Shown in pieces: positions 1,174-63,892 of a stretch of 64,000 bases of DNA. Each line of letters begins with the position of its first letter. Position 1 is the first letter of the stretch. The stretch is taken from the IMG/VR virus record IMGVR_UViG_3300028653_000014, positions 1-64,000 of that record; one strand, written 5' to 3'. The notes beneath the pieces are model-generated. The model was not told the origin of the DNA. It saw only the letters and a program-made list of their open reading frames with translations, and did not search any database. A program made the position numbers and the translations under genes. Source of the DNA: a virus.

Positions 1174-1412
1174 CGATGCTCCTCCTCGAACAGCGTGATC
1201 TGACGTGCCGCACAGGCGGCCTGCCAGCGGGCACGAGACTCGACCAACCAGCGGATCTGCTCGGCCGCTTCGTCCAGTAACGCGCGCGTGCCAGGCGCGT
1301 GCGGCTCGAAGTAGGGGGTCGACAGCGAGGTACGTGCTCGGAGCCTCTCAGCGACCGCCAGAGCCTCCCGGCCGTCCTGGTCGATGCTCACAGTCGACCC
1401 ATCGCTTCCCAC
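1170..1412 (-). CDS. hypothetical phage protein
   Basis: Coupled to neighbours in the minus-strand operon. Confidence 0.55.
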   Translation of the reverse strand: MGSDGSTVSIDQDGREALAVAERLRARTSLSTPYFEPHAPGTRALLDEAAEQIRWLVESRARWQAACAARQITLFEEEHR

Positions 1413-1639
1413 CGTTCAAGCGCTTTCTGAACCTGCAGACGGGTCAGCAGGTCAAGCTCGTACGCACGAGTCTCCGTCACGGTCCCGGTGCCGACGCATT
1501 CGGGGCATTCGATGATGCCGACCTTCACGATCCCGTAGGCGGCCATCTGCTCGTCGGAGAACTGCTCCGTGATGGCGGCGTCCATGTCGCGGCAGTCGAG
1601 CACCCGGTCGCCCAGGCAGCACGGGCACACGACACTCAT
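1388..1639 (-). CDS. small zinc-ribbon protein (DnaJ-type CxxCxG)
   Basis: CPCCLG and CPECVGTG motifs. Confidence 0.6.
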   Translation of the reverse strand: MSVVCPCCLGDRVLDCRDMDAAITEQFSDEQMAAYGIVKVGIIECPECVGTGTVTETRAYELDLLTRLQVQKALERWEAMGRL

Positions 1640-1881
1640 GACGTCGCCTCTATGCGCGGGTCGTTAGAGAGACGCCATTCGTAGAAGGTCTTGGCGTTCG
1701 GGATCACTCCAACCATGTCCTTGCCGATGCCGAGTGCGTATTCAGCCAGATAGGCGTTCAAGGTCGTGCCTGGGTCAATGCCTCCATCCGACGACAGAGC
1801 GTCAGCGTAAGCCTCGATGACATCAGAGAGCGGAATGCGAACCTCGCCGGTCACAACGACCCAATCCTGACGTTCGTTCAC
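1636..1881 (-). CDS. hypothetical protein
   Basis: Likely GTG start at 1881 (VNERQDW); stop overlaps the next start. Confidence 0.5.
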   Translation of the reverse strand: MNERQDWVVVTGEVRIPLSDVIEAYADALSSDGGIDPGTTLNAYLAEYALGIGKDMVGVIPNAKTFYEWRLSNDPRIEATS

Positions 1882-1981
1882 GGCCGCACCGTCGCTTGTT
1901 CCCACGCCATCTTCGCGAGCGCCCACGGGAGATAGATCAGCGCTTCGGCCGTGAGGATCAGCAACTGGGCGCGCTCGCGGT

Positions 1982-2239
1982 TCACGGTCGGCTCCCGGCC
2001 CACGGCGACACGACCCATAATCTAGTCTCACGATCGAACACTCCCACGCGGAGCGCCCGTTCGCCCTTGTGGAACTCACCCTCGGCGTGCAGGGTCAGCA
2101 GCGTGATGCCGAGACCCTCGACGCTGGTCTCGGCGATCCTGCGGCGCTCACCATACGTGCCGATGATGTAGACGGCGAGTCTGTCCTCACCGTCGGGGCG
2201 CGGCTCGTCGCCATGCTCGTTCAGATGCAGGCTAGTCAT
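1982..2239 (-). CDS. hypothetical protein
   Basis: Coupled ORF with protein-like composition. Confidence 0.5.
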   Translation of the reverse strand: MTSLHLNEHGDEPRPDGEDRLAVYIIGTYGERRRIAETSVEGLGITLLTLHAEGEFHKGERALRVGVFDRETRLWVVSPWAGSRP

Positions 2240-2435
2240 CGTCGATCAGCGCGCCTTCTCGGCCGCCAGATGGCGAGGGGCGACGAGGCTCGCGGACGCC
2301 GATGTCGGGCGGCAAGATGTCGAAGTCCTGCGCGAGTGCGTCGCGGAGTGCGACGAGTTCGCCGACGGACAACTTCCTCACCTGTTCGGCGGCCTTTTTG
2401 ACGGCCGGGGTGTATGTGCCTTTCACCTCAGTCAT
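2232..2435 (-). CDS. ribosomal protein bL12 (L7/L12) N-terminal-domain-like protein
   Basis: AAEQVRKLSVGELVALRDALAQDFDI matches the bL12 NTD pattern (I.E.I..MTVLEL.ELVK..EEKFGV); no C-terminal domain. Confidence 0.55.
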   Translation of the reverse strand: MTEVKGTYTPAVKKAAEQVRKLSVGELVALRDALAQDFDILPPDIGVREPRRPSPSGGREGALIDDD

Positions 2436-2826
2436 CGCCGCCGTCGACTCTCGCAGCAGGGAATGCCGGGACGGGAACGAGCGCTACCGCGAGAAGTCTG
2501 CCGTTCCTGACGACGGCCGTCCAGTCGCTAAACGCGTCATCGCCCGAGGTTTCCCAGCCATCAATCGCGATCTCGGCGCCGAGCGGCTTTCCCGCCAGTT
2601 CCTCGGTCGCCGTGCCGGAGCCGCGGATCAGATTGTCGTCGCGGTGGATCTCGGTGATCGAACCGACGATCATGTTTTCGCCTGTCGTCCAGAAACCGAT
2701 CCTGTAGAGCGGGACAGGCGTCTCCCAGGTGATGGCGCCATGAGCGATCTTCCGCCGATCGGTGCTCTCCTCGCCTTCGACAAGCAGAGTAGCGGTGAAC
2801 GGGAACTCGAACGTCTGCTCAGTCAT
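2428..2826 (-). CDS. stand-alone prohead/capsid-maturation protease-like domain
   Basis: LLVEGEESTDRRKIAHGAITW..PVPL, VGSITEIHRD, GRLLAVALVPVPAF resemble actinophage capsid maturation protease motifs. Confidence 0.55.
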   Translation of the reverse strand: MTEQTFEFPFTATLLVEGEESTDRRKIAHGAITWETPVPLYRIGFWTTGENMIVGSITEIHRDDNLIRGSGTATEELAGKPLGAEIAIDGWETSGDDAFSDWTAVVRNGRLLAVALVPVPAFPAARVDGGDD

Positions 2827-3972
2827 CGCCGCCGCTCTCCATCCACGTGTCGTATGCCTGCACGACGTCGGGGAACCCGAGCCGCAGCTTCGCCTTGTTC
2901 TCGAAGTCGGCCTTTGCGATCAGCCGGAGCAGGTGGGCGGTGAACCAGTCGCCGTTCCCGGCGATGATGTCGGCCATGCGCGCCTTGTCGTAGGCGGAGA
3001 TCACGCGACTGCCTCCTCGTCCCGCCAGATGGCGGCGTTGTAGCGGGCCAGCAAATCCTCGGACTCGGCCAGCAGCGTCTCGGCGACCCGGAGTGCGTCA
3101 TCCTTCGCCGCGATGTCGCGGCGCAGACGCACGATCGTTTCGCGGTCGTCGACGGGCGTCTCGACGTAGAGGCTCCGGAGGCGGCCGTCAGGGGATGTGC
3201 CGATCAGGGCGGCCAGCATCGCTGCGTCAGCCGCGGGGCCGCGCGCGACACGTGCGTCCGCGAGGGTCACGCGAACGCTCCGCACGAGCAGTCGGCGCTG
3301 CACTGGCCGTCACCGTTCGGGCCGTGATGCTCGGTCGTGTGGTGGCCGCACGAGCACCACTCCTCGGGGTGCAGGTCGCGGCTCTCGCCGTCGCTCAGAT
3401 GGCCCCGGTAGCCGTACGCTTCCGCGGCGCCGTTGAAGATCAGGGCGCGGACGCGGCGGGTGGTCGTGTCGAGGGTCACGCTGCCACGCCTGCCTGCTCT
3501 AGCAGTTTGTACGCGGCGAACGTCATCTCTTCACCGCGGTAAGTCACGATCTCTCTCGCGTTCGGCAGATGAGATGCCTTCTCCCACGCACGAACGGCGG
3601 CCTTGACGGCAGCGGTGGAGGCCAGGACTTCGCAGACCTCGCCCGTCTCAGTCCACGCGTCGGCCTCTTTCTGGGCTTGAGCGAAGGAACGTATCGGGCC
3701 TGTGTAGCCGATGCCCGCTGCGTTCTGCTTGCTCGTGCGCTTCACGTAGAAACTCATGACGCCACCAGCGAAACCCTGATGAGCGCGGAGTGCGCTCGCT
3801 CGCGGCGGATCTTGCACTCGTCCATCCACGACAGCGCCCGCTTGTAGGCGGCCTGGTTCTCGGGAGTACCGGTGCGCTCAGCCGCTTGAACGAAGTGCTT
3901 CCGCGCGATCCGGTAGTCCTCGTCGCGCTCTGCAACCTCTGCGCGAAGTGTGGTGATGCTCTGCTCGTTCAT
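2819..3972 (-). CDS. five coupled small hypothetical genes (2819-3004, 3001-3270, 3267-3479, 3476-3757, 3754-3972)
   Basis: ATGA/GTGA overlaps throughout; GGAG SD before 3972; 3267-3479 ends in a CxCGH..H..C..CxC module. Confidence 0.6.
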
Positions 3973-4014
3973 GGGAGACTCCTTTCGGTAGGGGCCGTGT
4001 CTCCGTGCTTACAT

Positions 4015-4048
4015 ATAGCAGACTACCACCTAGGGGTGGGTTTGTCTA
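4015..4048 (-). promoter_or_regulatory. sigma-70/SigA-type promoter
   Basis: TAGACA (4048-4043), N17, TAGTCT (4025-4020), followed by GCTAT. Confidence 0.7.
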
Positions 4049-4051
4049 CCC

Positions 4052-4405
4052 TCAGGCCGCGACGAGTTCACGGCCGTTACGGGCCGCTAGACGTCGCTCA
4101 CAAGATTCGCGCGACTCCCGAGTCCTGTGGGTGTGCGGGCAGCGCACAGGGAGCGGCTCACGACGCGCGAGCACGTACCGGCGAAGGGCTTCCAACTGCG
4201 GATGGTGGGAGCGGCAGACGGTCAGAAGATTCGACTCGTCGAACGGCGCGCCGCCTTCTGCGAGCGGGGTCAGGTGATGTACCGAGAGGGGACCGCCGGA
4301 GCAGGAGCCGCCCAGGAGACGGCTAACCGAGCAGGTGCCGTGGTCTCGTGCGATGACGGAACGCCGAACGTCCGCCCAGAGCGAGGTGTTGTAGATATCC
4401 GCCAC
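4052..4405 (-). CDS. HNH endonuclease
   Basis: VIARDHGTC..LSVHHLTPLAEGG..NLLTVCRSHH. Confidence 0.85.
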   Translation of the reverse strand: MADIYNTSLWADVRRSVIARDHGTCSVSRLLGGSCSGGPLSVHHLTPLAEGGAPFDESNLLTVCRSHHPQLEALRRYVLARREPLPVRCPHTHRTRESRESCERRLAARNGRELVAA

Positions 4406-4453
4406 GTGGATTCACCAACGTGAAGTGTGCCAGTTGCATCAGACGTTGCGCAC

Positions 4454-4650
4454 TATGGAGTCACGCGCGCGTTACTCATCGTGAACCGTCTCAGACCCTG
4501 GCCGCCTCGGTACGGGATCGGCTTGACCGGGGTCGGGTTCTCCAGCAGCCAGTGGAACTGGCCCGGCTCGGCCCACGGGCTGTCGCTGTCCCTCACGACG
4601 TCGACTAGCTCGACGTGGCCCAGGATGACGCCGCGCGGCTCGTCGGCACC
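4454..4650 (-). pseudogene. C-terminal half of an ASCH-domain protein with no start
   Basis: Third frame reads EPRGVILGHVELVDVVRDSDSPWAEPGQFHWLLENPTPVKPIPYRGGQGL. Confidence 0.65.
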
Positions 4651-4901
4651 AGGGCGTCCGACTCTTCGATGCCAAGCTCCCGCGCGGCCATCACCCGGTG
4701 GTTGCCCGACAGGACCTCGAACGTGTCGTCGTCGTGCGGGCGGACGAGGATCGGTGCCAGGAACCCGTCGCGCTGCATCGAGTCCTTCAACGCGTCCATC
4801 TGGGCCTCGGAGAGGTACTGCGGGTTTCGTTTCAGCGCGACCAGCTTGTCGACGCGCAGGTAGAGGAGTTCGCCCTTGTCAGGAACCGTCTGTGCGCTCA
4901 C
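4605..4901 (-). CDS. ParB/Srx N-terminal domain protein, apparently truncated
   Basis: NPQYLSEAQMDALKDSMQRDGFLAPILVRP..FEVLSGNHRVMAARELG; GTG start at 4901. Confidence 0.75.
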   Translation of the reverse strand: MSAQTVPDKGELLYLRVDKLVALKRNPQYLSEAQMDALKDSMQRDGFLAPILVRPHDDDTFEVLSGNHRVMAARELGIEESDALVPTSRAASSWATSS

Positions 4902-5122
4902 GTAAGCCTCCACACCGCGTCGATGAGATACCAGTAGAGGTGAGCGATGACCGTCAGTACCGCGACGCTCAGAACGATGCAGACGCCGATGGCGACTAGC
5001 AGGATGATCCATCCGATCCGACGGCCGAATCGGTACATCGCGGGGTGAGCGGTACGCAGGTGAGCACTGGCGTCGACGGGTGGCGCCGCCGGTTTCAGCC
5101 CGAGATCGGGGATGTGCGGCAT
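4898..5122 (-). CDS. small membrane protein
   Basis: One long hydrophobic segment. Confidence 0.55.
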   Translation of the reverse strand: MPHIPDLGLKPAAPPVDASAHLRTAHPAMYRFGRRIGWIILLVAIGVCIVLSVAVLTVIAHLYWYLIDAVWRLT

Positions 5123-5532
5123 CAGGCGACCATCCTGTCACGGACGGGATACTCCCGCTCGATGACGTAAGCGAAGCCAAGATCGGCGGCGAAACTGATG
5201 GCCGCGAGCGGGATCAGTTCGAGCACGATCGGCTGTATCCGGGAATGGTGTCTGGAATGTGCTCGTGTACAGATTCCCAGACCATTGGGCAGCGCCCACA
5301 TCAGTTCGCGCAGCAGATCGGTGTGCGCGTCCTCGTCGAGATACTGCTCGTGCGCGACCGCGGACACGTAGCGTCGGATGATCTGGGCACGCAGGATGTG
5401 ATGGCCCACGACAATGCCGCGGCATTGCTCCTCGATGTTAGGGCATACCCGACAGCCGAGCGCGGTTGTCCGGCGCCGCCACTCCTTCGACGCTTCGATC
5501 TCCAGGTTCTTCGTCGCGACCTTGGTCCTCAC
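5122..5532 (-). CDS. HNH-like nuclease
   Basis: CRVC..GHHI..NGLGICTRAHSRHH. Confidence 0.55.
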   Translation of the reverse strand: MRTKVATKNLEIEASKEWRRRTTALGCRVCPNIEEQCRGIVVGHHILRAQIIRRYVSAVAHEQYLDEDAHTDLLRELMWALPNGLGICTRAHSRHHSRIQPIVLELIPLAAISFAADLGFAYVIEREYPVRDRMVA

Positions 5533-5726
5533 CGCCGCTTCCCCTTCACGCTGGTCGCCAGCTTGCCGCGGCCGAACGAATACCCCTTCTGGATCTGGGC
5601 GCCCTTCAAGATCGCGACCTGCGCCTTGTTCGCCGCCGCGTCGGGATGCGGGACAGCGATCAGCGGGTCGAGCCCGGCCGTCTTGCGCGCCTGCGCGAGT
5701 CTCTGCCAGTCCGTCCGCTTGCCCAT
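5529..5726 (-). CDS. small basic hypothetical protein
   Basis: ATG 5726 coupled to the upstream stop. Confidence 0.5.
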   Translation of the reverse strand: MGKRTDWQRLAQARKTAGLDPLIAVPHPDAAANKAQVAILKGAQIQKGYSFGRGKLATSVKGKRR

Positions 5727-6181
5727 CAGAGGGATGCTAGCCAGTCGTCGTAGCGGCAGCCGTGGATCGTCCACAGGCTGTTCGGTATCCACGTGCCGAG
5801 CGTGGCCGACGTGAGTGCCCCGACTGCCACCTCCGTCGCCGCCGGGTAGCGGAACGTGCTGCGACTGCCGAGCACCTTCGCGACCTCGTCATAGTCGGAC
5901 GGGCGCCACAGGTACACCTCTGACCCGGCTTTCGCTAGCCCGCTCATGAACACGATCTGCCGTTCGGATGGCTTGTTCTTCTCGGTCTTCAACTCCGCGA
6001 AGATCGTCCGGTCCCGCCACATCGTCCGGTCGGGGAAACCCGGGGCGCTCCCTTTCGAGCGAAGCGTGTGATAGCTCTGCCAGCCGAGAGTCGTGGCGAC
6101 GCCTTTGTTGGCGCCGAAGACGAATGCGTCCCATTCCCGTTCGATCATGTTGCGGAGATCGATCGGCGCGTGGAGCGGCAT
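5726..6181 (-). CDS. VRR-NUC family nuclease (junction resolvase-like)
   Basis: GFPD..FAELKTEKNKPSERQ..VYLWRPSD PD-(D/E)xK motif. Confidence 0.85.
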   Translation of the reverse strand: MPLHAPIDLRNMIEREWDAFVFGANKGVATTLGWQSYHTLRSKGSAPGFPDRTMWRDRTIFAELKTEKNKPSERQIVFMSGLAKAGSEVYLWRPSDYDEVAKVLGSRSTFRYPAATEVAVGALTSATLGTWIPNSLWTIHGCRYDDWLASL

Positions 6182-6734
6182 CAGAATGTCTGCTCGTCCT
6201 GGAACATGAGCACTTGGCCGTACGTGAACTCTCGGCCCTCAGTGTCATGAAGGACGAGTTGCGCGAGCGGCACCGCCGAACCGGTGAGGGATGTTGCCGT
6301 CAGCCCGAGTACCAGTTCGGCGACTGTGCCGCCCAGCGCGGGGTCGAGTTCGACGTTCGACCCGTCTTGGAGAACCGCGCGAACCATCAGACCGGCAGCG
6401 GGTCGTCCAGCCCAGTGAGGCGTTGCGGCTGCGGCCAGCCTTCCGGCTCATCCGACGGTGGGGACGACGGCATCGGAACGGTGTTCAGCCCGGTCACGAT
6501 CGTCTCGACCTTCGGCGTGCGTGGCTTCCAGGCGTTCTCGGACACCGCGACGCAGATCGGCGGCGGCGTCTTGCCGTAGAACAGCCGGATCGCGTGGTCG
6601 CGGTCACGTGCCTCTCGTGAGCCGACGAACCGCCAGACCATCAGGTTCTCGTCGGACTCCAGCACGTAGAACCGGGTCACGGTCGACAGCGGAGGCGCGA
6701 CCAGTGTCGTCGCCTGATTTTTCGTTTCTGTCAT
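6181..6734 (-). CDS. two small hypothetical genes (6181-6387, 6387-6734)
   Basis: TGATG coupling; GGAG SD before 6734. Confidence 0.55.
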
Positions 6735-6736
6735 GG

Positions 6737-7603
6737 CTACTCCTCCCCGATGACTGACCGCACCTGCGCCCACACCTCGGCCGAGATGACAGCGCCGCCG
6801 TCGCTGGTCGGCTGCCCCTGGTGCGCGACCAGGTTCAGGACTTCCAGCGCGCGCTGAGCGAGCGACGCGGGCCGGTCGATCACCGTCTGTTGGCCCTGGG
6901 TGGGTTCGCCGCTCTTCGCCTTCTTGATCTCGGCCCGAAGAGTTTCGCGATCCCAGCCGTTCACGACGGCTTCGTTCAGCCAGTACACCTGCTCCTCGCG
7001 GTCGAGCGCACGGACGGCTTCGTGGATGGTGAAGCCGAGTTCGACACGGCGCACGTCGAGCGGCACCGACCGGCAGAGAGACGCGTAGTTCTCCAACGTC
7101 GCGACTTTCAGGCCGGTGATGCGGTGCGCGACGTCGTACAACTCCTGCGGTGTCCCCTCGACCGCCTGCGCGTGGTCTTCGCCGAACAGGTCGGCGCCGA
7201 ACGCGAGCGCGTCGCCGAGCCAGAACCGGGACGACTCTGCGAACTCGCCGATGTTGTGGAGGATGGTCGTCCAGGTGTCGAACTCCATCGCGGTGTCGGT
7301 CAGCACGAGGCCGCGCAGATGGACGCTGTCGGGCGGGAACAGGAACAGTTGGCCGACTTCGCGGAGCGCCGGGAGGCGTGACTCTGCGATCTTCAACGCC
7401 TCCGCACCAAGGGCGTCAGCCGGGGCGCTCTCGACAGGAGCAGCGGCAGCGAACTCGGCGTCGTCGGCGGCCTGCCGTGCCTGCTCCGCGAGCGCTTGCA
7501 CTCGGTCGAGTTCCGCGATCCGGGCCTCTTCCTCGTTCGGCTCGTCGTCTCCGAGACTGGCTTCGGCGATGTCCTGCAGTACCTCAGCTTCGCTTTCGCT
7601 CAT
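6737..7603 (-). CDS. LmbU-like DNA-binding/regulatory protein with acidic N-terminus
   Basis: FWLGDAL.FG..FGE, TGL..TLENYA..VRR.ELGF..H..V..L..EEQ..WL..A...GW.R..LR pattern of the LmbU family; AAGGAG SD. Confidence 0.7.
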   Translation of the reverse strand: MSESEAEVLQDIAEASLGDDEPNEEEARIAELDRVQALAEQARQAADDAEFAAAAPVESAPADALGAEALKIAESRLPALREVGQLFLFPPDSVHLRGLVLTDTAMEFDTWTTILHNIGEFAESSRFWLGDALAFGADLFGEDHAQAVEGTPQELYDVAHRITGLKVATLENYASLCRSVPLDVRRVELGFTIHEAVRALDREEQVYWLNEAVVNGWDRETLRAEIKKAKSGEPTQGQQTVIDRPASLAQRALEVLNLVAHQGQPTSDGGAVISAEVWAQVRSVIGEE

Positions 7604-7664
7604 GGTTCTCCTTCATCGTTGGTTCGGAAGTAGCAGCCTACACCTGTGCCCGATAACGCGGGCG

Positions 7665-9407: not shown

Positions 9408-9880
9408 CGCACGATCCTGTGGGCCAGCCGCCAGACAGTCGACTGCGATACGCCGAAGCGAGTCGCAACTGCCCGTTGTGTTTCGCCGTGCGCGACAGCG
9501 GCGCGCACTTCCTCGACCTCAGCATCGGTCAATGTCGCAAGATGCTGGTCGAACCCGCGATGGACTGGCGGTGGGCTGAGGCGCCCCTTCGACTTGCAGT
9601 CCTGCATGTTGTCTGCCTGTGTGCCGAGGAACAGATGATCGAAACGAACGCATAGCGGCGTGTCGCACTTATGAAGAACCCACAGATCGTCAGGCAGTTC
9701 GCCGCCGTGAATCACCCACGAGAGACGATGCGCGTACTCCTGCCGTCCGTCGTTTATCAGCGCGCCGTAACTGCTGCTCGTGGGGCCTGTCCAGAGCCAG
9801 CAGCCCTCGCTTCGCTGAACGCAATGCCAGAATCTCTCCTCGACGGTCGGATCAAGCGTGGTGATAGCGCGTCCGCTCAC
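9404..9880 (-). CDS. free-standing HNH homing endonuclease with C-terminal HTH
   Basis: RFW..CWLWTG..AHRLSW..VLHKCDTPLCVRFDHLFLGTQADNMQD; GTG start at 9880. Confidence 0.9.
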   Translation of the reverse strand: MSGRAITTLDPTVEERFWHCVQRSEGCWLWTGPTSSSYGALINDGRQEYAHRLSWVIHGGELPDDLWVLHKCDTPLCVRFDHLFLGTQADNMQDCKSKGRLSPPPVHRGFDQHLATLTDAEVEEVRAAVAHGETQRAVATRFGVSQSTVWRLAHRIVR

Positions 9881-10776: not shown

Positions 10777-10812
10777 AGGCGGTAGCAGTCTATCCGAACG
10801 AGGGCCGGGCCG

Positions 10813-11727: not shown

Positions 11728-11734
11728 GCGCGCG

Positions 11735-13621: not shown

Positions 13622-13668
13622 GGAGTAGCAGTCTACCTAAGCAACGGGCGACGTGCTACCCCGGCGAG

Positions 13669-16218: not shown

Positions 16219-16220
16219 GT

Positions 16221-55939: not shown

Positions 55940-55947
55940 CGCGTGCG

Positions 55948-56613
55948 TTACCGGGTCCAGTCGATGGCCGCGACGTCACACTCATCGCAGTCGCCGACGT
56001 AGCAGCACGAAGTTCTTCCCTCGTCGAGGCCGTTCATCGTGCGGCGGCCGATCAGGCTGATCGATCGATCCTCGTGCTGGACGAGGTTCGGGACGGTCGA
56101 GATCGGCTCGACGCCGACGTGTCTGGCCCAACGGTTCACGATCTCGTCGTCGGCGGTGAAGTCGGGCCGCCATCCTTGCACGTCGACGAACTCCAGCAGA
56201 CTCGGGATCATCACCGTCGGCCATGCCACCGCGACCTGCGCCAAGAAGTGCGCCGCGGGTAGCTCGGCCCACGGTTCGTCCCGTTCGCAGGCGGCCCACA
56301 CGGCACGTGCGTGAGTCTCCGGGCGCCCTGCGACGAAGAACAGGATCAGACGGTCGCTGCGGGCCTCTACGGCCGCGTGTGCCGCGTCGCGGAACCCTGG
56401 GCAGACGGTTGTGTCGTCTTGAAGACTCACGACGTGCGTGGCTTCCTGCGGTCTCGTCTCCAGCAGATGCCGCAGGGTCCTCCAGGGTGACTTGATCGGG
56501 GCGTCCGGCTCCGGGTCGTAACACACCTGGCCGCCGACCTCCTGCGCGAGCGTCTCGGCCATCAGCGTCCGGGTCGGGTGCGCCTGCACCCTGAATGCGA
56601 TGTCGACGGTCAC
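55948..56613 (-). CDS. GT-A fold glycosyltransferase
   Basis: AHP.R, HVVSLQDD..C.GF, VA.A.P, DD.I..W, PNLVQH, as in actinophage glycosyltransferases. Confidence 0.7.
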   Translation of the reverse strand: MTVDIAFRVQAHPTRTLMAETLAQEVGGQVCYDPEPDAPIKSPWRTLRHLLETRPQEATHVVSLQDDTTVCPGFRDAAHAAVEARSDRLILFFVAGRPETHARAVWAACERDEPWAELPAAHFLAQVAVAWPTVMIPSLLEFVDVQGWRPDFTADDEIVNRWARHVGVEPISTVPNLVQHEDRSISLIGRRTMNGLDEGRTSCCYVGDCDECDVAAIDWTR

Positions 56614-56625
56614 GCGGCCGTGACT

Positions 56626-58185
56626 TTACAGCAGGCCGAGCGCGAGCATCTCTTCCAACTCCGCCTGCTCCCGCTCCGCACGCGCGTCGACGGTCGGCAG
56701 GTGTTTGTCGAGCCAGTCGGCGGGGAACCCGGAGCCGCCGCCGAGCGCGACCGTGACGGGCGGTGGCGGAACGTGGCCGCCGGACACGGTGACGGCCAGG
56801 GTCGATGTGCCCGCCAGGACGGGGGTGAGGTACTGGAACCGTGTGAGGGTCGCGGCGAGCGTGCTGGTGCCCGTCAGGGTCGGCCGGATGTAGACGACGC
56901 CCAGCAGCGACGCGGTCAGACTCGATGTGCCGACGAACGTCGGGGTCAGCAGCTTGTACTCGGCCAGTCCGGCGTCCAGTGTCGAGGTGCCGCTGAGCGC
57001 GACGGTGATCTGCTGGAACTCGGTCAGCGCGGCACTCAGCGCGGACGTGCCTGCCAGATCGACGGTGACGTACCGGAACTCCGTGACGGCGGCGGCGAGA
57101 CTCGATGTACCGGCCAGCGTGACCGTGATGCGCTTCTGCTCCGCAACACTCACGCTCAGAGACGAACTGCCCGCGAGGGTCGGGGTCAGATAGACGAGTT
57201 CCCCCAGGGTCGCCGTGAGGGTGCTGGCCCCGGCCAGGGCAACGGTGATGTGCTTGTACTCCGTGACGGCTGCCGACAACGACGAGGTGCCTGTCAGCGA
57301 CACCGTGATCTGCTTGAACGAAGTCAGGGTTGCGGTCAGCGACGATGTGCCCGCGAGAGCCGGGGTGATGTGCTTGAACTCCATCAGGGACGCGGCGAGC
57401 GTGCTCGTGCCTGCGAGTGCAACGGTGATCTGCTTGTCCGCCGTCAGGGCCGCCGTCAGCGACGAGGTTCCAGCCAGGGTGACGGTGATGGCTTTGAACT
57501 CGGTGACGGTCGCGGTCAGCGAACTTGTCCCGGCCAGCGTGACCGTCAGGTTCTTATCCGACGTCAGGGAGGCGCTGAGAGACGACGTACCGGTCAACGA
57601 GACCGTCAGACGCTTCTGCTCCGTCAGGGTCGCCGTGAGGCTGCTGGTGCCCGCGAGGGACACCGTGAGATTCTTGTCCTCGACTAGCGAAGCGCTGAGG
57701 GCCGATGTTCCCGCGAGGGCGACCGTGATCTGTTTGAACTCCGTGAGGCTTGCCGCAAGGCTGCTCGTTCCTGCCAGTGTCACCGTGAGGTTCTTGTCCT
57801 CGACTAGAGACGCCGACAGACTCGACGTGCCCGCCAGAGCAACCGTGATTCGTTTCTGCTGCGTCAGCGAGGCCGTCAACGCCGACGTCCCGGCCAGCGT
57901 GACCGTCAGGTCGTCGTCCTCTACGAGCGCCGCCGTCAGTGACGAGGTGCCCGCCAACGCGACGGTGATCTGCTTGTATTCCGTCAGCGTCGTGCTGAGA
58001 CTTGAGGTACCGGCCAGGGCAACGACGAGGGAGTCGATGGCTGTTTCAGCCGGAACCTGCTGGCGCATCGGCTCACCAGCGCGGAAGTAGTCGAACTCGA
58101 ACTCGCTGCTCTTACCCGCGAAGGCGCCGAACGGCTCCCCCGCGCGGAAGTAGTCGAGTTCGTTTGGGTTAGCCGCCGAGGCCAT
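56626..58185 (-). CDS. Ser/Thr-rich repetitive fibre/stalk protein
   Basis: 21 repeats of 20 aa; duplicated DYFRAGEP at the N-terminus. Confidence 0.8.
   Translation of the reverse strand: MASAANPNELDYFRAGEPFGAFAGKSSEFEFDYFRAGEPMRQQVPAETAIDSLVVALAGTSSLSTTLTEYKQITVALAGTSSLTAALVEDDDLTVTLAGTSALTASLTQQKRITVALAGTSSLSASLVEDKNLTVTLAGTSSLAASLTEFKQITVALAGTSALSASLVEDKNLTVSLAGTSSLTATLTEQKRLTVSLTGTSSLSASLTSDKNLTVTLAGTSSLTATVTEFKAITVTLAGTSSLTAALTADKQITVALAGTSTLAASLMEFKHITPALAGTSSLTATLTSFKQITVSLTGTSSLSAAVTEYKHITVALAGASTLTATLGELVYLTPTLAGSSSLSVSVAEQKRITVTLAGTSSLAAAVTEFRYVTVDLAGTSALSAALTEFQQITVALSGTSTLDAGLAEYKLLTPTFVGTSSLTASLLGVVYIRPTLTGTSTLAATLTRFQYLTPVLAGTSTLAVTVSGGHVPPPPVTVALGGGSGFPADWLDKHLPTVDARAEREQAELEEMLALGLL
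56770..58029 (-). repeat. 21 x 60-bp coding tandem repeat
   Basis: Unit (I/L)TV(A/T)LAGTSSL(T/S)A(S/T)LTExKx, diverged at synonymous positions. Confidence 0.9.
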
Positions 58186-60047
58186 CAGGCCACCGAGAAC
58201 GTGTCGAAGATCGTCTTGCCGATCCCCGAGGTGTCACCGGCAATCAGGCGTACCGTCACGATCCCAGCCTGGGTCGGGTCAATCGTGATCGACTGCTGCT
58301 CCCAGGCGTTACGGGCCAACGAGTCGAAACTGACCTGGACGTCTCCGACACCGACCTGGCCGCCCTTCACAATCTGAAGTTGCGGCAACGGGCCTGCATA
58401 GTTCGAGTCGAACTGGCAGTAGACACTGATCGTGAGAACGCCCGCGTCTACAGCAAGATCGAAATCCTGGAATCCGTCGCCGACCACGGAGATGGCGTTC
58501 GCGCCAGTGTGAACTGTCCCGGTTTCCTTGCCGAAGTTGTTGCCCGCCTGGAACGCGCCCGAGTCGATCCGGGTCGAGAGGGACGGGCGCGGCCCGGCTC
58601 GGCCGTCGAGCGGGGTCTGCGAGCCGTCCGCACCGAACACATAGGGAGCCAGTGGACCGCCCGCGATCGGCTCGCCGAACACCCGAGACTCCGCGCCCCA
58701 AACCCGCTCCTGCCCGAAGTAGAACAGGGGCGCCCATGACGCGTCCGCGAGGTTCTGAGAGTGAGGCCCGGCCGTCACGAGCGTGTTCGCTACCCGGTTC
58801 GTGTTCATGTTGTAGTCCTCAAGGATCTGCCCGGCAACGGCCGCCGTCAGGAAAGCCTGATTGCCGCCGTACGAGAAACAGTTCTTGACGAGACACGGGA
58901 CCGTCGTCGACGAGCCGGTGACGTTCAGGAGCGCCGGGCCGAGCACGGAGGCGTTGTAGATCCGGAGGCCGCCGCCCTTACCGGTGCCGGAGCCGCCCGA
59001 GATGACGGAGATGGCGACGGTGGGGCCGAGGAGGTGCGAGCAGTTCGTCATGGTGATGTTGAAGTCGTAGTCGGGACCGGCGCCGAGCGTCGCGGTGATC
59101 TGGATGTGCCCGCCAGCGGTCGCGGAGATGACGTCGACGCCGCCGCCGATGAAGAGGCACCGGTCGAAAAGCCAGTTCATGTTCGAGCCGTATGCGGCAC
59201 CGATAGAGAAGAACCGGCGGCCCGCCGACGACCCTTGCTGGAACGCGCAGTCGCGCCACGTCACGTTGACGCTACCGGCGGTGTTCGCGAGGATGTTGAC
59301 GTTCGACGAAGCCTCACCGCCGACGCAGTACAGGTTCGCGAACGAAAGGTTCGGTTTGCCGTTCAGGTCGATCAACTGGTTCAGAGACGGAGCGGTACGA
59401 TCACCGGCCGTGTAGGCAGTCCACTGCACCATCCCGACGTCGCCGGTCATGGCCCCCGTCACGTCGCCGAATATCTGCACCAGGCCGCCGACGGGCCGCC
59501 AGTTTGCCCCCATCGTCGACGAGAACCGGTACACCCCGGCGCCGACCCAGACGGTGTCCCCGGCCCCTACCGGGCTGTTGGTGTCGCCCGTGATCGCGCT
59601 GTCGGCCCATGCCGCCCGAGGGTCAGCCCAGGCGCCGCCGATAGCCCACGTCTGCCCGGACGCGGACAGAGTGCAGGCACGGTCGAGGATCACCGTCGTT
59701 CCGTTCGTGACGGACACGATCTGGTGGCGGCGAGCGGTGGCGCCTGTCGAGATGCAGATGCCGCGACCGACGTCGGCGGAGGTGAATGCGGCAGTCGCCG
59801 ACGTGAACGTCGTGGTGTTGTTCGCTACGCCGTCCGTGCCTGACCGCAACGCCGTCAGCGACTTGTCCGACCCGCCGTTGTTGTTCGATCCTCCCGCCCG
59901 GACGAACCAGTTGTCCCCGAGCGGCGTCGCGGCGCTGGTCTGCTGCGCCCGCGCCCCGGCCGCCGCACCGAGAACGTCGGTGGGGCGGAACGGGGTAGGC
60001 GGAAGGATGAACCCCGGTGCGAGCGCGGGCTGGTTCGGCCCCGGCAC
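58185..60047 (-). CDS. beta-helix spike/fibre protein with C-terminal carbohydrate-binding-like domain
   Basis: WFVRAGGSNNN, GAGDTVWVGAGVYR, N/C-ladder repeats, W....T..P...G.V.VRL. Confidence 0.65.
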   Translation of the reverse strand: MPGPNQPALAPGFILPPTPFRPTDVLGAAAGARAQQTSAATPLGDNWFVRAGGSNNNGGSDKSLTALRSGTDGVANNTTTFTSATAAFTSADVGRGICISTGATARRHQIVSVTNGTTVILDRACTLSASGQTWAIGGAWADPRAAWADSAITGDTNSPVGAGDTVWVGAGVYRFSSTMGANWRPVGGLVQIFGDVTGAMTGDVGMVQWTAYTAGDRTAPSLNQLIDLNGKPNLSFANLYCVGGEASSNVNILANTAGSVNVTWRDCAFQQGSSAGRRFFSIGAAYGSNMNWLFDRCLFIGGGVDVISATAGGHIQITATLGAGPDYDFNITMTNCSHLLGPTVAISVISGGSGTGKGGGLRIYNASVLGPALLNVTGSSTTVPCLVKNCFSYGGNQAFLTAAVAGQILEDYNMNTNRVANTLVTAGPHSQNLADASWAPLFYFGQERVWGAESRVFGEPIAGGPLAPYVFGADGSQTPLDGRAGPRPSLSTRIDSGAFQAGNNFGKETGTVHTGANAISVVGDGFQDFDLAVDAGVLTISVYCQFDSNYAGPLPQLQIVKGGQVGVGDVQVSFDSLARNAWEQQSITIDPTQAGIVTVRLIAGDTSGIGKTIFDTFSVA

Positions 60048-60056
60048 AGGGTCTCC

Positions 60057-60788
60057 TTAGTTGATCGAAGCGAGCGTTCGCAGGTGGTTCGTAAGCTGCG
60101 TCGTCGCCGTGCCGACGGAGAACTGCGCCGTTACCGACAGCGCCGAAGCAGCGACCGTTGAGAGCGACGAGACAACAGCCGGAACGTTCGCGCCTCCGGC
60201 GGTCATCGTGTAGATCGACTGCGGCGCAGAATCGGCCGCGACCGGCACGTCGTTCAGGAACACCTTGCCCATGCAGTACGCCGAACCTGCCGCGCCGATG
60301 GAGCGCCAGCACAACGTCGCCTGCAGCGAGCCGGTGTAGTTCGACCGAGCCGTCGCGGAGAGAGCGATGGCGGCGGTGGCGGCGAGCAGGGTCCCGGCGA
60401 CTCCACCCCAGCGGATACGGAACGTCAGGGTGCCCGGCGTGGTCACGACGTTCGACACATCGAACTCGCACTCGATCTTGAAGTACGCGCCCGAGTAGAT
60501 GTGCGGGTCGTTCGCGGCGAACGTGTAGTCCGGCGTGATGATCGCTTCGGCCGTCGAGTTCAGGATCTGCGTGCCGTCAGCGATGTCGGACGCGAGGATC
60601 TCGAAGAATCCCTGCTTCGTCGCGTTCGGGCCGGAACCACGCGGATGCGCTCGCGCCCGGTCGAGCTGCTCAAGCACCGATACGGGCAACCGCCCTTCCG
60701 CATAGGCGTCGTTCAAGTAGTCGCGGTAACGGTTGGCCTCGACCGGCTTGCCGGTACGAGGATCGAGGATAAGTCCGGGATTCATCAT
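60057..60788 (-). CDS. virion accessory protein
   Basis: Ala/Thr beta-rich, TPGTLTFRIRWGG; in the fibre module. Confidence 0.55.
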   Translation of the reverse strand: MMNPGLILDPRTGKPVEANRYRDYLNDAYAEGRLPVSVLEQLDRARAHPRGSGPNATKQGFFEILASDIADGTQILNSTAEAIITPDYTFAANDPHIYSGAYFKIECEFDVSNVVTTPGTLTFRIRWGGVAGTLLAATAAIALSATARSNYTGSLQATLCWRSIGAAGSAYCMGKVFLNDVPVAADSAPQSIYTMTAGGANVPAVVSSLSTVAASALSVTAQFSVGTATTQLTNHLRTLASIN

Positions 60789-61372
60789 GCCTCGCTGCTG
60801 GTCAGGCCGGAGGGCTGCACGACAGGCGTGTCGAGCGGGTTGATCGCCGTCGACGTGATCGACCCCCAGTAGATGATGTTCCCGGCACCGATGGTGACCG
60901 AGTCCAGGACGACATAGAACGTTGCCGTCTGGAGCGTCCCTGCATTCGTCGGGAACGTGATCGCGGTCGCGTTCGTGATCGCCGCCCCGGCCGTCGACGT
61001 CGGGAAGTTCGTCGTGTTCGCGGTGACCGTCACCCGTGTGTAGCCGGTGTACGACGCCTCACCCGAGGTCGCGCCCGTCGAGGCCGCCGTGATCGTCGAC
61101 GTCCAGAGCGCGTGGAAGCTCGAAGCGGGGAACGAAAACGCGGCGGCGTTCCAGTACGCGTTCAGCAGCTTGCTGGCGTAATACTGGGACTTGCCGGACG
61201 CCCAGACGACGAGGTCTTTCAGGCTGCGGCGGAAGCCCCGCGTGATGACGGCGCCGGGGCGCAGAGACGGCAGCCACGGCGTCTCGATGATCGCGCCGTC
61301 AGGGCAGAACGTCAGGTTGACGCGGTTGCCGCGCCGGTTGTGCCACTGGATCTGGTCGAGTGCGATCTCCAC
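60785..61372 (-). CDS. fibre cap/minor structural protein (gp80-like)
   Basis: S.Y...KLLN, ALWT, GE.SYTGY.RV.V, TNA.AITFP, N..Y.G. Confidence 0.65.
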   Translation of the reverse strand: MEIALDQIQWHNRRGNRVNLTFCPDGAIIETPWLPSLRPGAVITRGFRRSLKDLVVWASGKSQYYASKLLNAYWNAAAFSFPASSFHALWTSTITAASTGATSGEASYTGYTRVTVTANTTNFPTSTAGAAITNATAITFPTNAGTLQTATFYVVLDSVTIGAGNIIYWGSITSTAINPLDTPVVQPSGLTSSEA

Positions 61373-61374
61373 GT

Positions 61375-61782
61375 CTACTCACCCCTCCGCTTCTTCAGCA
61401 TTTCCTGGATCGCCTCGTACTCGTTCTGGTCAACCTGCAGACCCGGCTGCACGCCGTCCTCCAGCACGATGTTCGCGAAGCGGCGATGCTTCCGCTCATG
61501 CCACGACCGGGTGTCCGCGTCCGTGGCGAGCCGGTAGCGCGAGTTGCCCTCGTCGTCGTCTTCGAGAACGAGCCGTTGGTCGGGAACCTCATGCGGGTGG
61601 GCGACCACGGCGGCGAGTTCGGCCTCGGCCTCGGCAATCGCGTCCTTGTCGCCGTTCGCGGTCGCGAAGTCAAGCTGTGCCTGCGCGATAGCGGTACGCC
61701 GCGTCTTGTCGGCCTCGTCCGTCTTGACGGTGTAGTGCCAACCGTCCATGTAGACGATCGGGCCGAACTCAGTTTCAGTCAT
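61375..61782 (-). CDS. hypothetical protein
   Basis: Coupled ORF with AGGAGG SD. Confidence 0.6.
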   Translation of the reverse strand: MTETEFGPIVYMDGWHYTVKTDEADKTRRTAIAQAQLDFATANGDKDAIAEAEAELAAVVAHPHEVPDQRLVLEDDDEGNSRYRLATDADTRSWHERKHRRFANIVLEDGVQPGLQVDQNEYEAIQEMLKKRRGE

Positions 61783-63892
61783 CGATGTCCTCCTGGACGT
61801 AGACCTTCTCGCCCGTGACGGGGTCGAACTGGATTCGTACCTGCCGCGGCTTCACTTCCGCCGTGTGAGTGTGAACCTCAACCTGGGCGGGCGGCACGTT
61901 CACGACCGTCTCGGGGACGTTCACGACGACCGACGGTGCGGCCTGCTCCGGCACGGTGAAGTTCACGACCGGCGCCTCCGCGGCGGCGACATGCACGTCG
62001 ACCTGGGGGGCGGTCTGTTCCGGCACATGGACGGTGATCTGCGCGGGTTCCACCCGCACATTCTGCTCCGGCACGTTAACGGTGATCGGGGCGGCGGCCG
62101 TTTCGGGTCTGAGCGCGAACTGGCGGAGCGCCTCGATGGCAGCCGAGGCGAGGATGTCGCCCTGCGCGGAGCCGCGCTCCTGCACCGCCGACGCGACGAG
62201 CGCCATGACGCCCTGCGTGGTCGACAGGTGCGCGGCCTCCAACGTTGCGAGCGCCGCTCTGAGAGCGTCTGTGTCCATCGTTCCGGCGCCGACACCCGGT
62301 AGATCACCCAGCGAGGCGATGAGGCTCTCAGCGGACGGTACGGTCTCCTGGACGGGTTCTGGCGGCGTCAGGTCTTCCAGCACGATCGGCTCGGCCGCGA
62401 GCGCGAGCACCTCGGCGAACAGTTCGTCGGTCACGCCCGCGTTACCGGCGCGCTCGGTCACCCACTTGGCCGGGTTCTCCGGGTAAACGACCTGCGCGTC
62501 CCACCATCCGTCCGGGAGCGCCTCGGCCTCATGCTCGAAGTTGTCGACCCCGTCGATCGCGAGCATGTCGTCCTTGATCGGGTCAGGGTCGGTCCAGTCA
62601 CCGCAGACGTACAGCACCGTCTTCGTGTCTGGATTCCACGCCGTCTCGCCGTAGCCGCTGGCCTCATCCTGATGCTTCGCGGCGACCTTGGCGATCTGAA
62701 CGCCTACGTCCTGCGCAGCCGCGGCAGACATGGAGACGACCTGCTCGGGTAGCGCCGCTTCGCCTTCGGCCTTCCGCGCGTACAACTCCGCAAGCGTGCC
62801 GCCCGTCTCGACGGTCTCGCCAAGGAACGCGGACGCCTCGTCGGCGGAGAGCGGCCCAAACTCCAACTGTGACGCGCAGCGGCCCGGACGGCTGACCGCC
62901 GGGTGCAACGTCCCGAGTTCGTCGTTCGTCGTCACGAGCGCCAGCACCCGCAGCCCCTGACCGATCATCCCGTCGACGACGTTGAGCAGCCGCGACAGCC
63001 CCTGACCGTACGACTCCTTCGCGTTCGCCGCGAGCAGTTCCCCGGTGTCTTCCAGGATCAGCACCCGCCACTTGCCCTGCGGGTCGCCTTCGCTGTAGAC
63101 GTCACCGGTCGGCTCGTCGATCACGTCGTAACTGTCGGAGAGGAGCACACCGATCATGTAGGACGGGTCCTTGACGAAGAACGCGTCCGGGTCGGTGATG
63201 TAGTGGAACTCAGCCCACTTCGACCATTCCGACGCGAGCGCACGGAGCGCCCATGACTTGCCGGTTCCCGGTTCGCCCTGCCAGAGGATCAGTTGGCCGT
63301 CCCGCTTCGGCTCGTCCCACGACATCAGGTCGGCAAGTTCGGTGCGGACGGCGGCGGTGTAGTTGTGCTCGATGCCGTCCCACTGCGCCGACTCGATCTT
63401 CCGGAGGCGTGACTCGGGGCCGAACTTCCCGAGCGTCCAGAACGTGATCGGCACCTTCCCCTCCGTCGAGTTCAGGTAGGACGCCGGGAACTGCGCCCTG
63501 AACGCCCCGCACATCGCCGAGGCCGCCGCGCGGTCGTCTGACGCAACCTGGACGCGTAGCCACCCCCAGGAGAGCGACACGAGCGACAGCACGCCATCGG
63601 GGGAGCAGACGACGGCGCTCTCCCCGTCCCGGAACAACGTGCCTGGGATGTCTCCGAGACCGGCCGACTCGCACGGCCACCGGTCAGAGACGATCTCGTT
63701 GTGGTTCGCGGCAATCGCGAGGCTCAGGAATCTCCGCTCCGCGAGGCTGCCCTGCGTCAACTCGTAGTTCGAGACGACCTCCGGCTCGGCTGTCCCGGCG
63801 GCTAGAAGCGCCTCGTGGACGGCGCGGCGGCGTGCCCTCACGGACGGGTGACGAACGAGCGCCGGACGGCCGATGCTGACGGTGCTACCCAC
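61775..63892 (-). CDS. AAA ATPase (DUF5925-like) fused to an acidic domain and a V/P-rich tail
   Basis: GEPGTGKS, LILED, LSRLLNVVDG..GQG, TTN, HPAV.RPGRC; C-terminal VNVPEQ repeats. Confidence 0.8.
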   Translation of the reverse strand: MGSTVSIGRPALVRHPSVRARRRAVHEALLAAGTAEPEVVSNYELTQGSLAERRFLSLAIAANHNEIVSDRWPCESAGLGDIPGTLFRDGESAVVCSPDGVLSLVSLSWGWLRVQVASDDRAAASAMCGAFRAQFPASYLNSTEGKVPITFWTLGKFGPESRLRKIESAQWDGIEHNYTAAVRTELADLMSWDEPKRDGQLILWQGEPGTGKSWALRALASEWSKWAEFHYITDPDAFFVKDPSYMIGVLLSDSYDVIDEPTGDVYSEGDPQGKWRVLILEDTGELLAANAKESYGQGLSRLLNVVDGMIGQGLRVLALVTTNDELGTLHPAVSRPGRCASQLEFGPLSADEASAFLGETVETGGTLAELYARKAEGEAALPEQVVSMSAAAAQDVGVQIAKVAAKHQDEASGYGETAWNPDTKTVLYVCGDWTDPDPIKDDMLAIDGVDNFEHEAEALPDGWWDAQVVYPENPAKWVTERAGNAGVTDELFAEVLALAAEPIVLEDLTPPEPVQETVPSAESLIASLGDLPGVGAGTMDTDALRAALATLEAAHLSTTQGVMALVASAVQERGSAQGDILASAAIEALRQFALRPETAAAPITVNVPEQNVRVEPAQITVHVPEQTAPQVDVHVAAAEAPVVNFTVPEQAAPSVVVNVPETVVNVPPAQVEVHTHTAEVKPRQVRIQFDPVTGEKVYVQEDIDD

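Follow-up and report, generated by a model that had tools for sequence, protein, structure and literature searches.

A short palindrome recurs across the uncultured virus genome IMGVR_UViG_3300028653_000014 (hereafter G000), an 83,069-bp IMG/VR contig whose first 64 kb constitute the window analyzed here. The site reads GTMACGC-NN-GCGTKAC, with fixed inverted arms of 7 bp around a variable 2-bp center; its copies are in excess over chance, concentrate at gene junctions and stop codons, are evenly spaced, are conserved in relatives, and form weak hairpins. Tentatively, and with slightly less than even confidence, we read it as a DNA palindrome recognized by protein at the boundaries of transcription units, where it would serve as an operator plus a roadblock or insulator. 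One factor, probably phage encoded, would read the sites, and a protein with tandem ribbon-helix-helix (RHH)-like repeats is the first candidate; the protein presumed to bind there might repress, activate, or block transcription.

G000 (65% G+C; CheckV completeness, 86%) is an uncultured soil phage of actinobacteria. A codon-bias caller predicts ~130 genes, ~117 of them on the minus strand, and recognizable products include a major head protein, a head-tail adaptor, a DnaB-like helicase, a replication-initiator-like protein, HNH endonucleases, and glycosyl- and methyltransferases; 10 more conserved proteins searched against Pfam and PHROGs returned structural, HNH, and transferase matches only. 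The capsid protein matches 873 records, all at <60% identity and the top one near 38%, mostly from Mycobacterium, Gordonia, and Microbacterium phages, and it resembles actinobacteriophage capsids only distantly. Neither megablast nor blastn recovered an isolated phage with a DNA-level match to G000, and a LysB-type cutinase, sought as a clue to the host, had no match. Two distant relatives discussed throughout, the 88-kb genome G001 and the 10.3-kb JGI contig L047, also carry the palindrome.

Copy number, placement, and spacing of the palindrome

All 16 copies listed for the window in an initial annotation are present at their positions and with their letters, and this number (at ≤2 mismatches) compares with a mean of 0.41 and a maximum of 2 in 100 dinucleotide-preserving shuffles. 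Over the full contig, the 16-mer occurs 20 times at ≤2 mismatches (reversed control, 0), and the 14-bp core, T[AC]ACGC-NN-GCGT[GT]A, usually flanked by G and C, occurs at 23 sites at ≤1 mismatch, 18 of them perfect. The palindrome is the sole strongly recurrent intergenic word in G000.

Sites are found predominantly at gene boundaries. Fifteen of the 23 lie outside gene interiors, versus 18% of positions (p = 9e-7), and 12 of the 16 window sites are junctional by our own gene calls, the same count as in the initial annotation. At 11 of 23 sites a stop codon ends inside the palindrome or ≤4 nt to either side (background, 3.4%); for start codons, the same margin gives 3 of 23. The commonest coding-strand form is TAA...TGA: the proximal TAA terminates the upstream gene at 7653, 11723, 21658, 55936, and 66576, the distal TGA is a stop codon at 13668 and 78343, and at 11723, 56609, and 81815 the next gene starts with a GTG located in the distal arm. 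Because a stop-containing motif ends any frame that crosses it, this bias describes where the sites lie and does not prove a function. A leaderless start was considered for the three genes with an in-site GTG and rejected, since the sequence offers no -10 hexamer at the needed distance. The pattern is the same in G001, where gene junctions account for 22 of 28 sites and stops for 9 of 28.

The spacing reported for the window (0.7 to 7.5 kb) holds broadly, the measured range being 0.67 to 7.3 kb. Across G000, the mean interval is 3.66 kb and the coefficient of variation (CV) is 0.43. Random positions give 0.96 and gene junctions drawn at random 1.09, and none of 20,000 simulations yielded a value as low; in G001, the CV is 0.68 (P about 0.01 to 0.02). 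Early, replication, and structural regions alike contain sites. Three of the intervals are nearly equal, at 3183, 3193, and 3185 bp (1278 to 7654 and 13669 to 16854).

Positions of individual sites

The sites of the window are as follows; they are given without strand, and the strand of adjacent genes and open reading frames (ORFs) is in parentheses.

1277 to 1292: one mismatch; inside a 73-amino-acid (aa) ORF, 1170 to 1391 (-), that has a homolog in G001; one of 8 interior sites.
4460 to 4475: perfect; at the head of a ~480-nt poorly coding gap, downstream of 4605 to 4913 (-).
7653 to 7668: contains the TAA stop of 7665 to 9407 (-); 50 nt upstream of the ATG of 6737 to 7603; TAGGCT hexamer 13 nt downstream.
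11723 to 11738: TAA stop of 11735 to 11941 (-) and GTG start of 10813 to 11727 (-).
13668 to 13683: TGA stop of 13669 to 14133 (-); 47 nt upstream of the tandem-RHH gene; TAGACT hexamer 33 nt downstream.
16853 to 16868: followed immediately by a full promoter-like site and by a leaderless-type ATG at 16799.
21658 to 21673: TAA stop of 21670 to 21942 (-); TAGACT hexamer 35 nt downstream.
27590 to 27605: between two plus-strand genes, 2 nt past the stop of 27163 to 27588 and 45 nt before the start of 27650 to 28174; reads TAA..TGA on the plus strand.
31469 to 31484: two mismatches; in the last ~45 nt of a 60-aa ORF, 31441 to 31623 (-), and 32 nt upstream of the ATG of 30607 to 31437.
35720 to 35735: perfect; fills the 30-nt gap between 35738 to 36649 (-) and 34103 to 35707 (-).
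39094 to 39107: doubtful extra site; 14-bp core with one mismatch, inside the gene for a 1134-aa protein (36652 to 40056); missing from the initial list of 16, and may be due to chance.
43228 to 43243: perfect; in a 527-nt gap between 42254 to 42790 (-) and the HNH gene 43318 to 44220 (+), with a -10-like hexamer on both sides.
50491 to 50506: perfect; ~149 nt upstream of the start of the major capsid gene.
53304 to 53319: two mismatches; in a plus-strand block, 90 nt past the stop of 52873 to 53214 and near the uncertain start of 53270 to 53686.
55936 to 55951: TAA stops of the convergent genes 55757 to 55939 (+) and 55948 to 56613 (-); no gene start.
56609 to 56624: 2 nt past the TAA of 56626 to 58185 (-); the distal arm gives the GTG of 55948 to 56613.
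62430 to 62445: intragenic; in a variable linker behind the ATPase domain of 61775 to 63841 (-).

The double occupancy previously noted at two of these sites is borne out: the site at 11723 holds both a stop and the next start (TAA and GTG), and two TAA stops, one from each convergent gene, fall within that at 55936.

Recognition as DNA or as a hairpin

The variable positions of the arms behave as those of a DNA site. Choices at positions 2 (A/C) and 13 (G/T) do not covary, such that the two positions pair in 9 of the G000 sites and mispair in 14 (12 A.G and 2 C.U). Arms that are conserved without compensatory change suggest that a symmetric protein reads the double-stranded DNA, with either A or C tolerated in its half-site, and the fixed arms, free center, and lack of covariation bear out the initial suggestion of a site for a dimeric protein. 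The mixed A/C sites are biased 12:2 in orientation (two-sided binomial, ~0.013), which can be explained by TAA stops, GTG starts, and G/C-ending codons in the one frame that stays open and is thus not counted in favor of a direction-dependent mechanism.

Structure by itself, whether as an intrinsic terminator hairpin, a cruciform, or Z-DNA, might seem a natural reading of a GC-rich palindrome placed by stop codons, the more so as 10 G000 copies have an alternating CG center, and the initial annotation had raised Z-DNA formation. The stem, however, is at most 5 to 8 bp; 30-nt windows at the sites have a mean minimum free energy of -7.6 kcal/mol, often with a fold other than the palindrome, and no T-run follows, so that the GC-rich hairpin plus U-tract of an intrinsic terminator is not seen at the sites. 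A terminator scan of positions 1 to 20000 gave 7 terminator-like matches versus 9.7 in shuffles, none of them on a site. The alternating center is itself unconserved: CC or GG occupies it in most G001 sites and in 8 or more of those in G000, and such centers break the purine-pyrimidine alternation, leaving Z-DNA unsupported. With sequence kept in the absence of compensatory changes, and with positions 2 and 13 mispaired at 14 of 23 sites, readings based on structure alone are essentially excluded.

Promoters near the sites

Some of the sites are followed by promoter-like sequences. A -10-like hexamer (TAnnnT) lies ≤60 nt downstream, in the direction of the gene, of 9 of the 23 G000 sites, versus 4 of 23 on the upstream side and 7.9% of 60-nt windows genome-wide. 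In four cases (7653, 43228, 66576, and 78343) the hexamer is 10 to 18 nt from the site, a distance at which the site covers the -35 region, and in the other five it is 26 to 41 nt away. An independent promoter scan of positions 1 to 20000 returned, as the top of 3 matches, TAGACA-16-TAGAAT at 16834 to 16807 (-; 10 of 12 positions matched), which abuts the site at 16853.

G001 has a second conserved motif, CCTGCTATACGA(T/A), which occurs 34 times at ≤2 mismatches (loci L010 to L014; for example, at 62076, 68211, 53410, and 79622). In one orientation it constitutes a -10 region with TTGAC 17 to 18 nt upstream and an ATG 6 to 7 nt downstream, which looks like a promoter for leaderless mRNAs; in the other it lies within the spacer of TTGACT-N17-TAGTCT promoters. 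The motif is a possible operator for a second regulator. Half of the G001 palindromes (14 of 28) are ≤60 nt from it, five of them at a fixed 43 to 47 nt upstream of the CCTGCTATACGA -10 region and seven 4 to 6 nt from it. A single CCTGCTATACGA-like instance is present in G000, near 16810. The G001 palindrome at 8215 is situated in the spacer of a TTGCAT-N17-TATAGC promoter-like site that faces genes for a secreted protein and an HTH-like protein, and it is also beside a promoter of the opposite direction.

Distribution in related phages

Among 26 capsid-related IMG/VR loci, G001 alone has the array, which is absent from 24 other capsid relatives. The capsid of G001 is 55% identical to that of G000, and its 28 sites, nearly all of the form TCACGC-SS-GCGTGA, compare with 0 for the reversed control. 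G002 (96 kb, complete), whose capsid is 59% identical to that of G000, has no array, and the same is true of G003. L047, which was reached through its RHH-like protein, contains four perfect sites along with the same early genes. The arm sequence is thus conserved across genomes whose proteins share 36 to 55% identity. Exact matches to GTCACGCSSGCGTGAC in IMG/VR amount to 29 stretches. G001 accounts for 5 of them; the other 24 lie on different contigs and have at most two relaxed sites each, and multiple copies occur in G001 only. A repeated motif in L036 (IMG/VR contig 3300047160_003196, a distant capsid relative) was rejected as an array, being instead a collagen-like triplet coding repeat: its region ~13500 to 15300 is a long stretch of such coding, rich in GTCACGCC-type words and without relation to the palindrome.

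Two positions are common to G000 and G001: a site upstream of the capsid gene (~149 nt before it in G000; 145 nt before it in G001, site 32472) and a site on the GTG start of the 55948-to-56613 homolog (G001 site 35286). The intragenic sites in the ATPase-like gene of the two phages do not fall on aligned residues; that of G001 is likewise in the linker, and the G002 homolog ends about there. The palindrome-bearing linker region of 61775 to 63841 may be a former gene junction.

It had also been proposed that sites are crossover points for module exchange, on which breakpoints in synteny should fall. In G000, 7 of 15 junction sites are at the borders of blocks shared with G001, compared with 27 of 129 junctions (p = 0.016), an enrichment that lends the crossover idea weak support. 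None of the integrase families sought (tyrosine, PF00589; serine, PF00239) was matched in G000 (86% complete), G001 (92%), or G002 (100%).

Candidate binding proteins

Three G000 genes had been put forward as encoding the binder, each with a site just upstream, and such a site is indeed present 45 to 50 nt before each start:

13253 to 13621 (-): 122 aa, with two RHH-like repeats.
6737 to 7603 (-): 288 aa, HTH-like (described as LmbU-like in the initial annotation).
27650 to 28174 (+): 174 aa, HTH-like, transcribed counter to the main direction.

The two halves of the first protein are homologous to each other (hhalign probability, 94%; E = 1.5e-7), and its best PDB profile match is the Mnt repressor (E = 0.033), followed by Arc (E of ~1); Atlas neighbors from the ParG, Arc, and RHH_3 clusters (0.91 to 0.92) are leads only. 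It is one of the proteins that G000 and G001 share to the exclusion of G002 and G003. Its family is small, with 11 homologs in 5.8 billion proteins, and among the genomes examined it is confined to the three that bear the array (G000, G001, and L047), being absent from G002 and G003. The gene also keeps company with the palindrome: the G000 site is 47 nt upstream, that of G001 is 3 nt past the stop, and a weak site lies past the stop in L047. Both HTH-like proteins have homologs in G001 and L047 and additionally in G002, which has no array; for that encoded by 6737 to 7603, Atlas provides a lead only, to DUF1016/ParB-HTH clusters. L047 encodes all three candidates and hence does not discriminate between them. 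Searches of the three against Pfam (E ≤ 0.01) and PHROGs found no family, and no ParB/KorB N-terminal domain.

Comparison with known repeat systems

Networks of operators read by one regulator are familiar from other replicons. In IncP plasmids, the palindromic KorB operator (OB) is scattered over the replicon and serves one global regulator, and the temperate phage phiC31 has conserved inverted repeats that are bound by its repressor. Like the proposed array, these systems comprise promoter-proximal, promoter-distal, and intragenic sites for a single global regulator; they differ in sequence, in the temperate lifestyle of phiC31, and in that Pfam recognizes no ParB/KorB domain in the G000 candidates. 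Stoperators, the 13-mers of Cluster A mycobacteriophages (L5 gp71 type), are bound by a monomer in an orientation strictly tied to that of transcription; the same protein represses promoters and halts elongation. They are the best mechanistic analogue of the array, and the mechanism proposed here is modeled on theirs. They share with the G000 sites their many copies in short intergenic spaces across the genome, and they differ in being asymmetric and in belonging to temperate phages (PMC9283540 and PMC4351075), whereas the G000 site is palindromic and no integrase was found.

The initial annotation regarded the sites as an undescribed system, which is an overstatement: arrays of like size have been described in phage Clusters O and EG, and while the kind is known, the sequence alone is new. 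According to Cresawn et al. (2015; PMC4351075), Cluster O mycobacteriophages such as Corndog contain 34 copies of a 17-bp dyad repeat, TGTTCGG-NNN-CCGAACA, of unknown function, about a third of them in genes; these phages lack an integrase, and the authors infer from symmetry a dimeric binder with a role other than initiation. The same text reports two deletions between repeats and few rearrangements at them (PMC4351075). On that description, the resemblance to G000 extends to 7-bp inverted arms, a short free center, tens of mostly intergenic copies with about a third in genes, the lack of an integrase, and glycosyl- and methyltransferase genes among the structural genes. Cluster O repeats differ in sequence and center length and, as described, are invariant and crowded to one genome end; those of G000 are evenly spaced, hug stops, and in 9 of 23 cases precede -10-like hexamers.

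Cluster EG Microbacterium phages have 8 to 10 copies of an 18-bp repeat, GATCAACC-NN-GGTTGATC, whose function is given as unknown by Jacobs-Sera et al. (2020; PMC7302621). As reported there, its arms surround a 2-bp center, it occupies short intergenic regions, and it is kept in diverged relatives, all as in G000. It differs in being limited to those 8 to 10 copies, all 14 to 22 bp upstream of starts and at one genome end; in G000, stops are favored over starts (11 versus 3 of 23). The G000 array has the features typical of Cluster O- and EG-type arrays: short arms with a free center, many mostly intergenic copies, and retention in diverged relatives.

The palindrome core in Mycobacterium

The 12 specified bases of the core also occur in a repeat of mycobacterial genomes. 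A scan of cellular genomes with the G001-type 16-mer returned at least 120 stretches. Those listed include scattered single copies from many phyla; pairs 30 nt apart are found, among the matches listed, in three Mycobacterium genomes and one Actinomycetota metagenome-assembled genome. The listed stretches encode no relatives of G000 or G001 proteins beyond three generic enzyme matches. In M. paraffinicum (G006; 5.4 Mb), there are 15 exact TCACGC-NN-GCGTGA cores versus 0 for the control; the core is present in 26 of 41 sampled Mycobacterium genomes (85 copies versus 15 for the control) and in 7 of 201 class-wide genomes, where it is multicopy only in two Mycobacterium genomes. The mycobacterial core has a YR center and is part of a longer palindrome in which GAGCG and CGCTC flank it, one on each side; at all 13 of the G006 loci examined a coding-type ORF ends ≤60 nt from the site.

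These properties recall TRIT ("Tuberculosis Rho-independent terminator"), for which Gardner et al. (2011; PMC3152330) describe 147 copies in M. tuberculosis, a palindromic and bidirectional sequence, a very narrow placement at stop codons, and restriction to Mycobacterium. RNase III cleavage within TRIT has been proposed (PMC13714241), and published Term-seq data show little overlap of TRITs with mapped termination sites. We infer that the mycobacterial gene-end repeat is TRIT, equating the two by text description. It and the phage palindrome are alike in the identical core bases and in being gene-end, stop-proximal, palindromic, and bidirectional. The mycobacterial element is, unlike that of the phage, a palindrome of ~26 to 28 bp (TRIT, ~50 nt), often in tandem pairs 30 nt apart, that forms a stable hairpin and is ~100 times sparser; the phage site, at 16 to 18 bp and with a weak fold, lacks the long stable hairpin of ~50 nt that characterizes TRIT. 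Rfam had no match on the window or on four mycobacterial loci, the 40-nt mycobacterial element gave chance-level matches only (E of at least 0.6) against 50,697 phage records, and a full-text literature search with 12-mers of the phage and mycobacterial variants turned up nothing beyond unrelated papers and a table of indels in M. avium subsp. paratuberculosis.

One mycobacterial locus has the core on both sides of a gene. In L222 (G012:C89:37125-40271), ORF 838 to 1725 encodes a 295-aa protein that combines an AbiEi-like part with an MTES_1575/DUF559 nuclease, and the gene is flanked on each side by tandem pairs of TCACGC-NN-GCGTGA. This layout resembles that of repetitive extragenic palindromic (REP) elements and their REP-associated tyrosine transposases (RAYTs), an analogy that would apply to the repeat of Mycobacterium (probably TRIT). 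No such flanks are seen at the remaining four DUF559 loci in the same genome. A partner gene bracketed by the repeat, as in REP/REPIN systems, is seen at L222, and the phages have no counterpart: DUF559 is unmatched in G001 and matched once in G000, in an intein nuclease with no sites around it, and neither this nuclease nor the RHH protein showed any likeness to the mycobacterial nuclease.

Other features of the genome

Two free-standing HNH endonuclease genes, 43318 to 44220 (+) and 47710 to 48486 (+), lie on the minority strand among structural genes. Their products have HNH and HNH_3 domains, with an additional C-terminal HTH in that of 47710 to 48486, and 43318 to 44220 was mostly missed by the codon-bias caller, suggesting atypical codon usage. 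The palindrome was considered as a homing-endonuclease target and rejected as such, since HNH genes are not consistently adjacent to sites. Also counter to the main direction is the pair at 27163 to 28174 (+), comprising a secreted-protein gene (signal peptide; Rpf/transglycosylase-like in appearance) and the HTH-like gene; its counter-direction transcription is the same in G000, G001, and L047.

DNA nearly identical to positions 44001 to 54000 is present in rhizosphere metagenome runs from 2019 (14 rows with at least half of the sampled words; 8 of the rows may represent the source sample), and none of the runs listed as carrying it is an RNA run. In contigs from 4 runs that cover 44001 to 64000, none of the 40 variant places listed (70 more exist) falls within the 5 sites of that region.

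Weighing the explanations

In the reading that we favor, the palindrome would be a double-stranded DNA site for one dimeric, sequence-specific protein, most likely encoded by the phage: the tandem-RHH protein would be the first choice, followed by the HTH-like products of 6737 to 7603 and 27650 to 28174. Sites would punctuate a nearly one-directional genome at the boundaries of genes and operons. Where a promoter follows (9 of 23), the bound protein would cover the -35 region, or lie immediately upstream of it, and control initiation; where there is none (stop/start overlaps, the convergent pair, and the few intragenic sites), it could act as a roadblock or insulator against read-through. The role as operator or roadblock offered in the initial annotation fits the positions of the sites. 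Several points weigh against this reading. Fourteen of the 23 sites have no -10-like hexamer downstream, ~20 other G000 gaps of ≥40 nt are without a site, and the gene models, from our own codon-bias caller, are uncurated and crude. The scores behind the RHH assignment are marginal, and co-occurrence in three related genomes with a common early-gene module singles out no one gene. The lack of a detectable integrase makes a stoperator-like role in lysogenic silencing unlikely. Finally, the bias toward stops and the identical mycobacterial core fit equally well a signal that is read by the host, possibly at the RNA level.

Such a host-type gene-end signal, a TRIT-like core read by host machinery at transcript 3′ ends, is the main rival. 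It might shape or stabilize mRNA ends between genes through RNase III-type processing, a motif-binding factor, or termination, and it is possible and, on balance, unlikely. It would account for the multicopy core in Mycobacterium (15 versus 0 in G006, 85 versus 15 in 41 genomes, and two genomes of that genus alone in the class-wide sample of 201), for the ORF ends at 13 of 13 G006 loci, and for phage sites that touch stops (11 of 23 in G000, including one between convergent genes, and 9 of 28 in G001), and it agrees with the TRIT description (PMC3152330) and proposed cleavage (PMC13714241). Against it, the phage copies have neither the extended arms (GAGCG...CGCTC) nor the tandem arrangement in 30-nt pairs, and their hairpins are short and weak, with a stem mismatch at 14 of 23 sites; these mismatched short hairpins, together with a hundredfold-higher density (1 per 3.6 kb, versus 15 in 5.4 Mb in G006), argue against a purely RNA-structural version. 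Nor is a mycolata host backed by a LysB-type cutinase. The 40-nt element has no match among 50,697 phage records, the equation with TRIT goes by text description, and TRITs show little overlap with real termination sites in Term-seq. A combination is also conceivable and rather improbable: the phage lineage may have taken over a TRIT-type core from its host genus and may read it with a lineage-specific tandem-RHH protein as genome-wide punctuation that stops read-through and gates the next promoter.

Even spacing (CV of 0.43 versus 0.96, 0 of 20,000 simulations, and also low against random junctions; 0.68 in G001) would be explained best by a role in DNA organization, and promoter linkage would not. 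Evenly spaced sites could load or anchor a ParB/KorB-like or condensing protein for replication, compaction, or packaging, and junctions would merely be where a stop-containing palindrome is tolerated; the usual coding-strand form has stops in two of three frames and would push sites out of genes, and sites occur in the early, replication, and structural regions. We nevertheless think this improbable: Pfam detects no ParB N-terminal domain or other family in the candidates, the promoter association and the two conserved promoter-proximal positions would be unexpected, and operons of similar size would likewise space sites evenly. Lower still do we rate the idea that the palindromes are mobile, like REP elements, or that gene modules are exchanged by crossover at them, despite the sites at block borders (7 of 15 versus 27 of 129), the bracketed DUF559/MTES_1575 nuclease gene in Mycobacterium with its REP/RAYT-like layout, and the two between-repeat deletions reported for Cluster O (PMC4351075). 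The array-bearing G001 has no DUF559 match, and that of G000 is an unflanked intein nuclease with no relation to its mycobacterial counterpart; homologous exchange would have a very short stretch, 16 bp, to work with, the border enrichment is modest and expected anyway if sites mark operon borders, and few rearrangements are reported at Cluster O repeats in the same paper.

Significance

Arrays of short palindromes have been known in actinophages since 2015, their reader and role unexplained. What G000 adds to the known arrays is placement at stop codons, even spacing, a candidate binder family, and a core shared with a Mycobacterium gene-end repeat; the bias toward stops, the regular spacing, and the mycobacterial core had not been noticed in the initial annotation. 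G000 provides three testable handles: a small tandem-RHH family that travels with the array; clear positions, in the form of stop codons, promoters 10 to 47 nt downstream, and even spacing; and a core identical to that of a mycobacterial gene-end repeat. These could bear on gene control in phages, on predicting the hosts of soil phages that have not been cultured, and on the marking of gene ends in mycobacteria, TRIT being an element whose mechanism is itself disputed. If a TRIT-type core had in fact been taken over by this lineage, Mycobacterium would be named as the host of an uncultured phage group, and there would be a first protein handle on TRIT and on Cluster O-type repeats.

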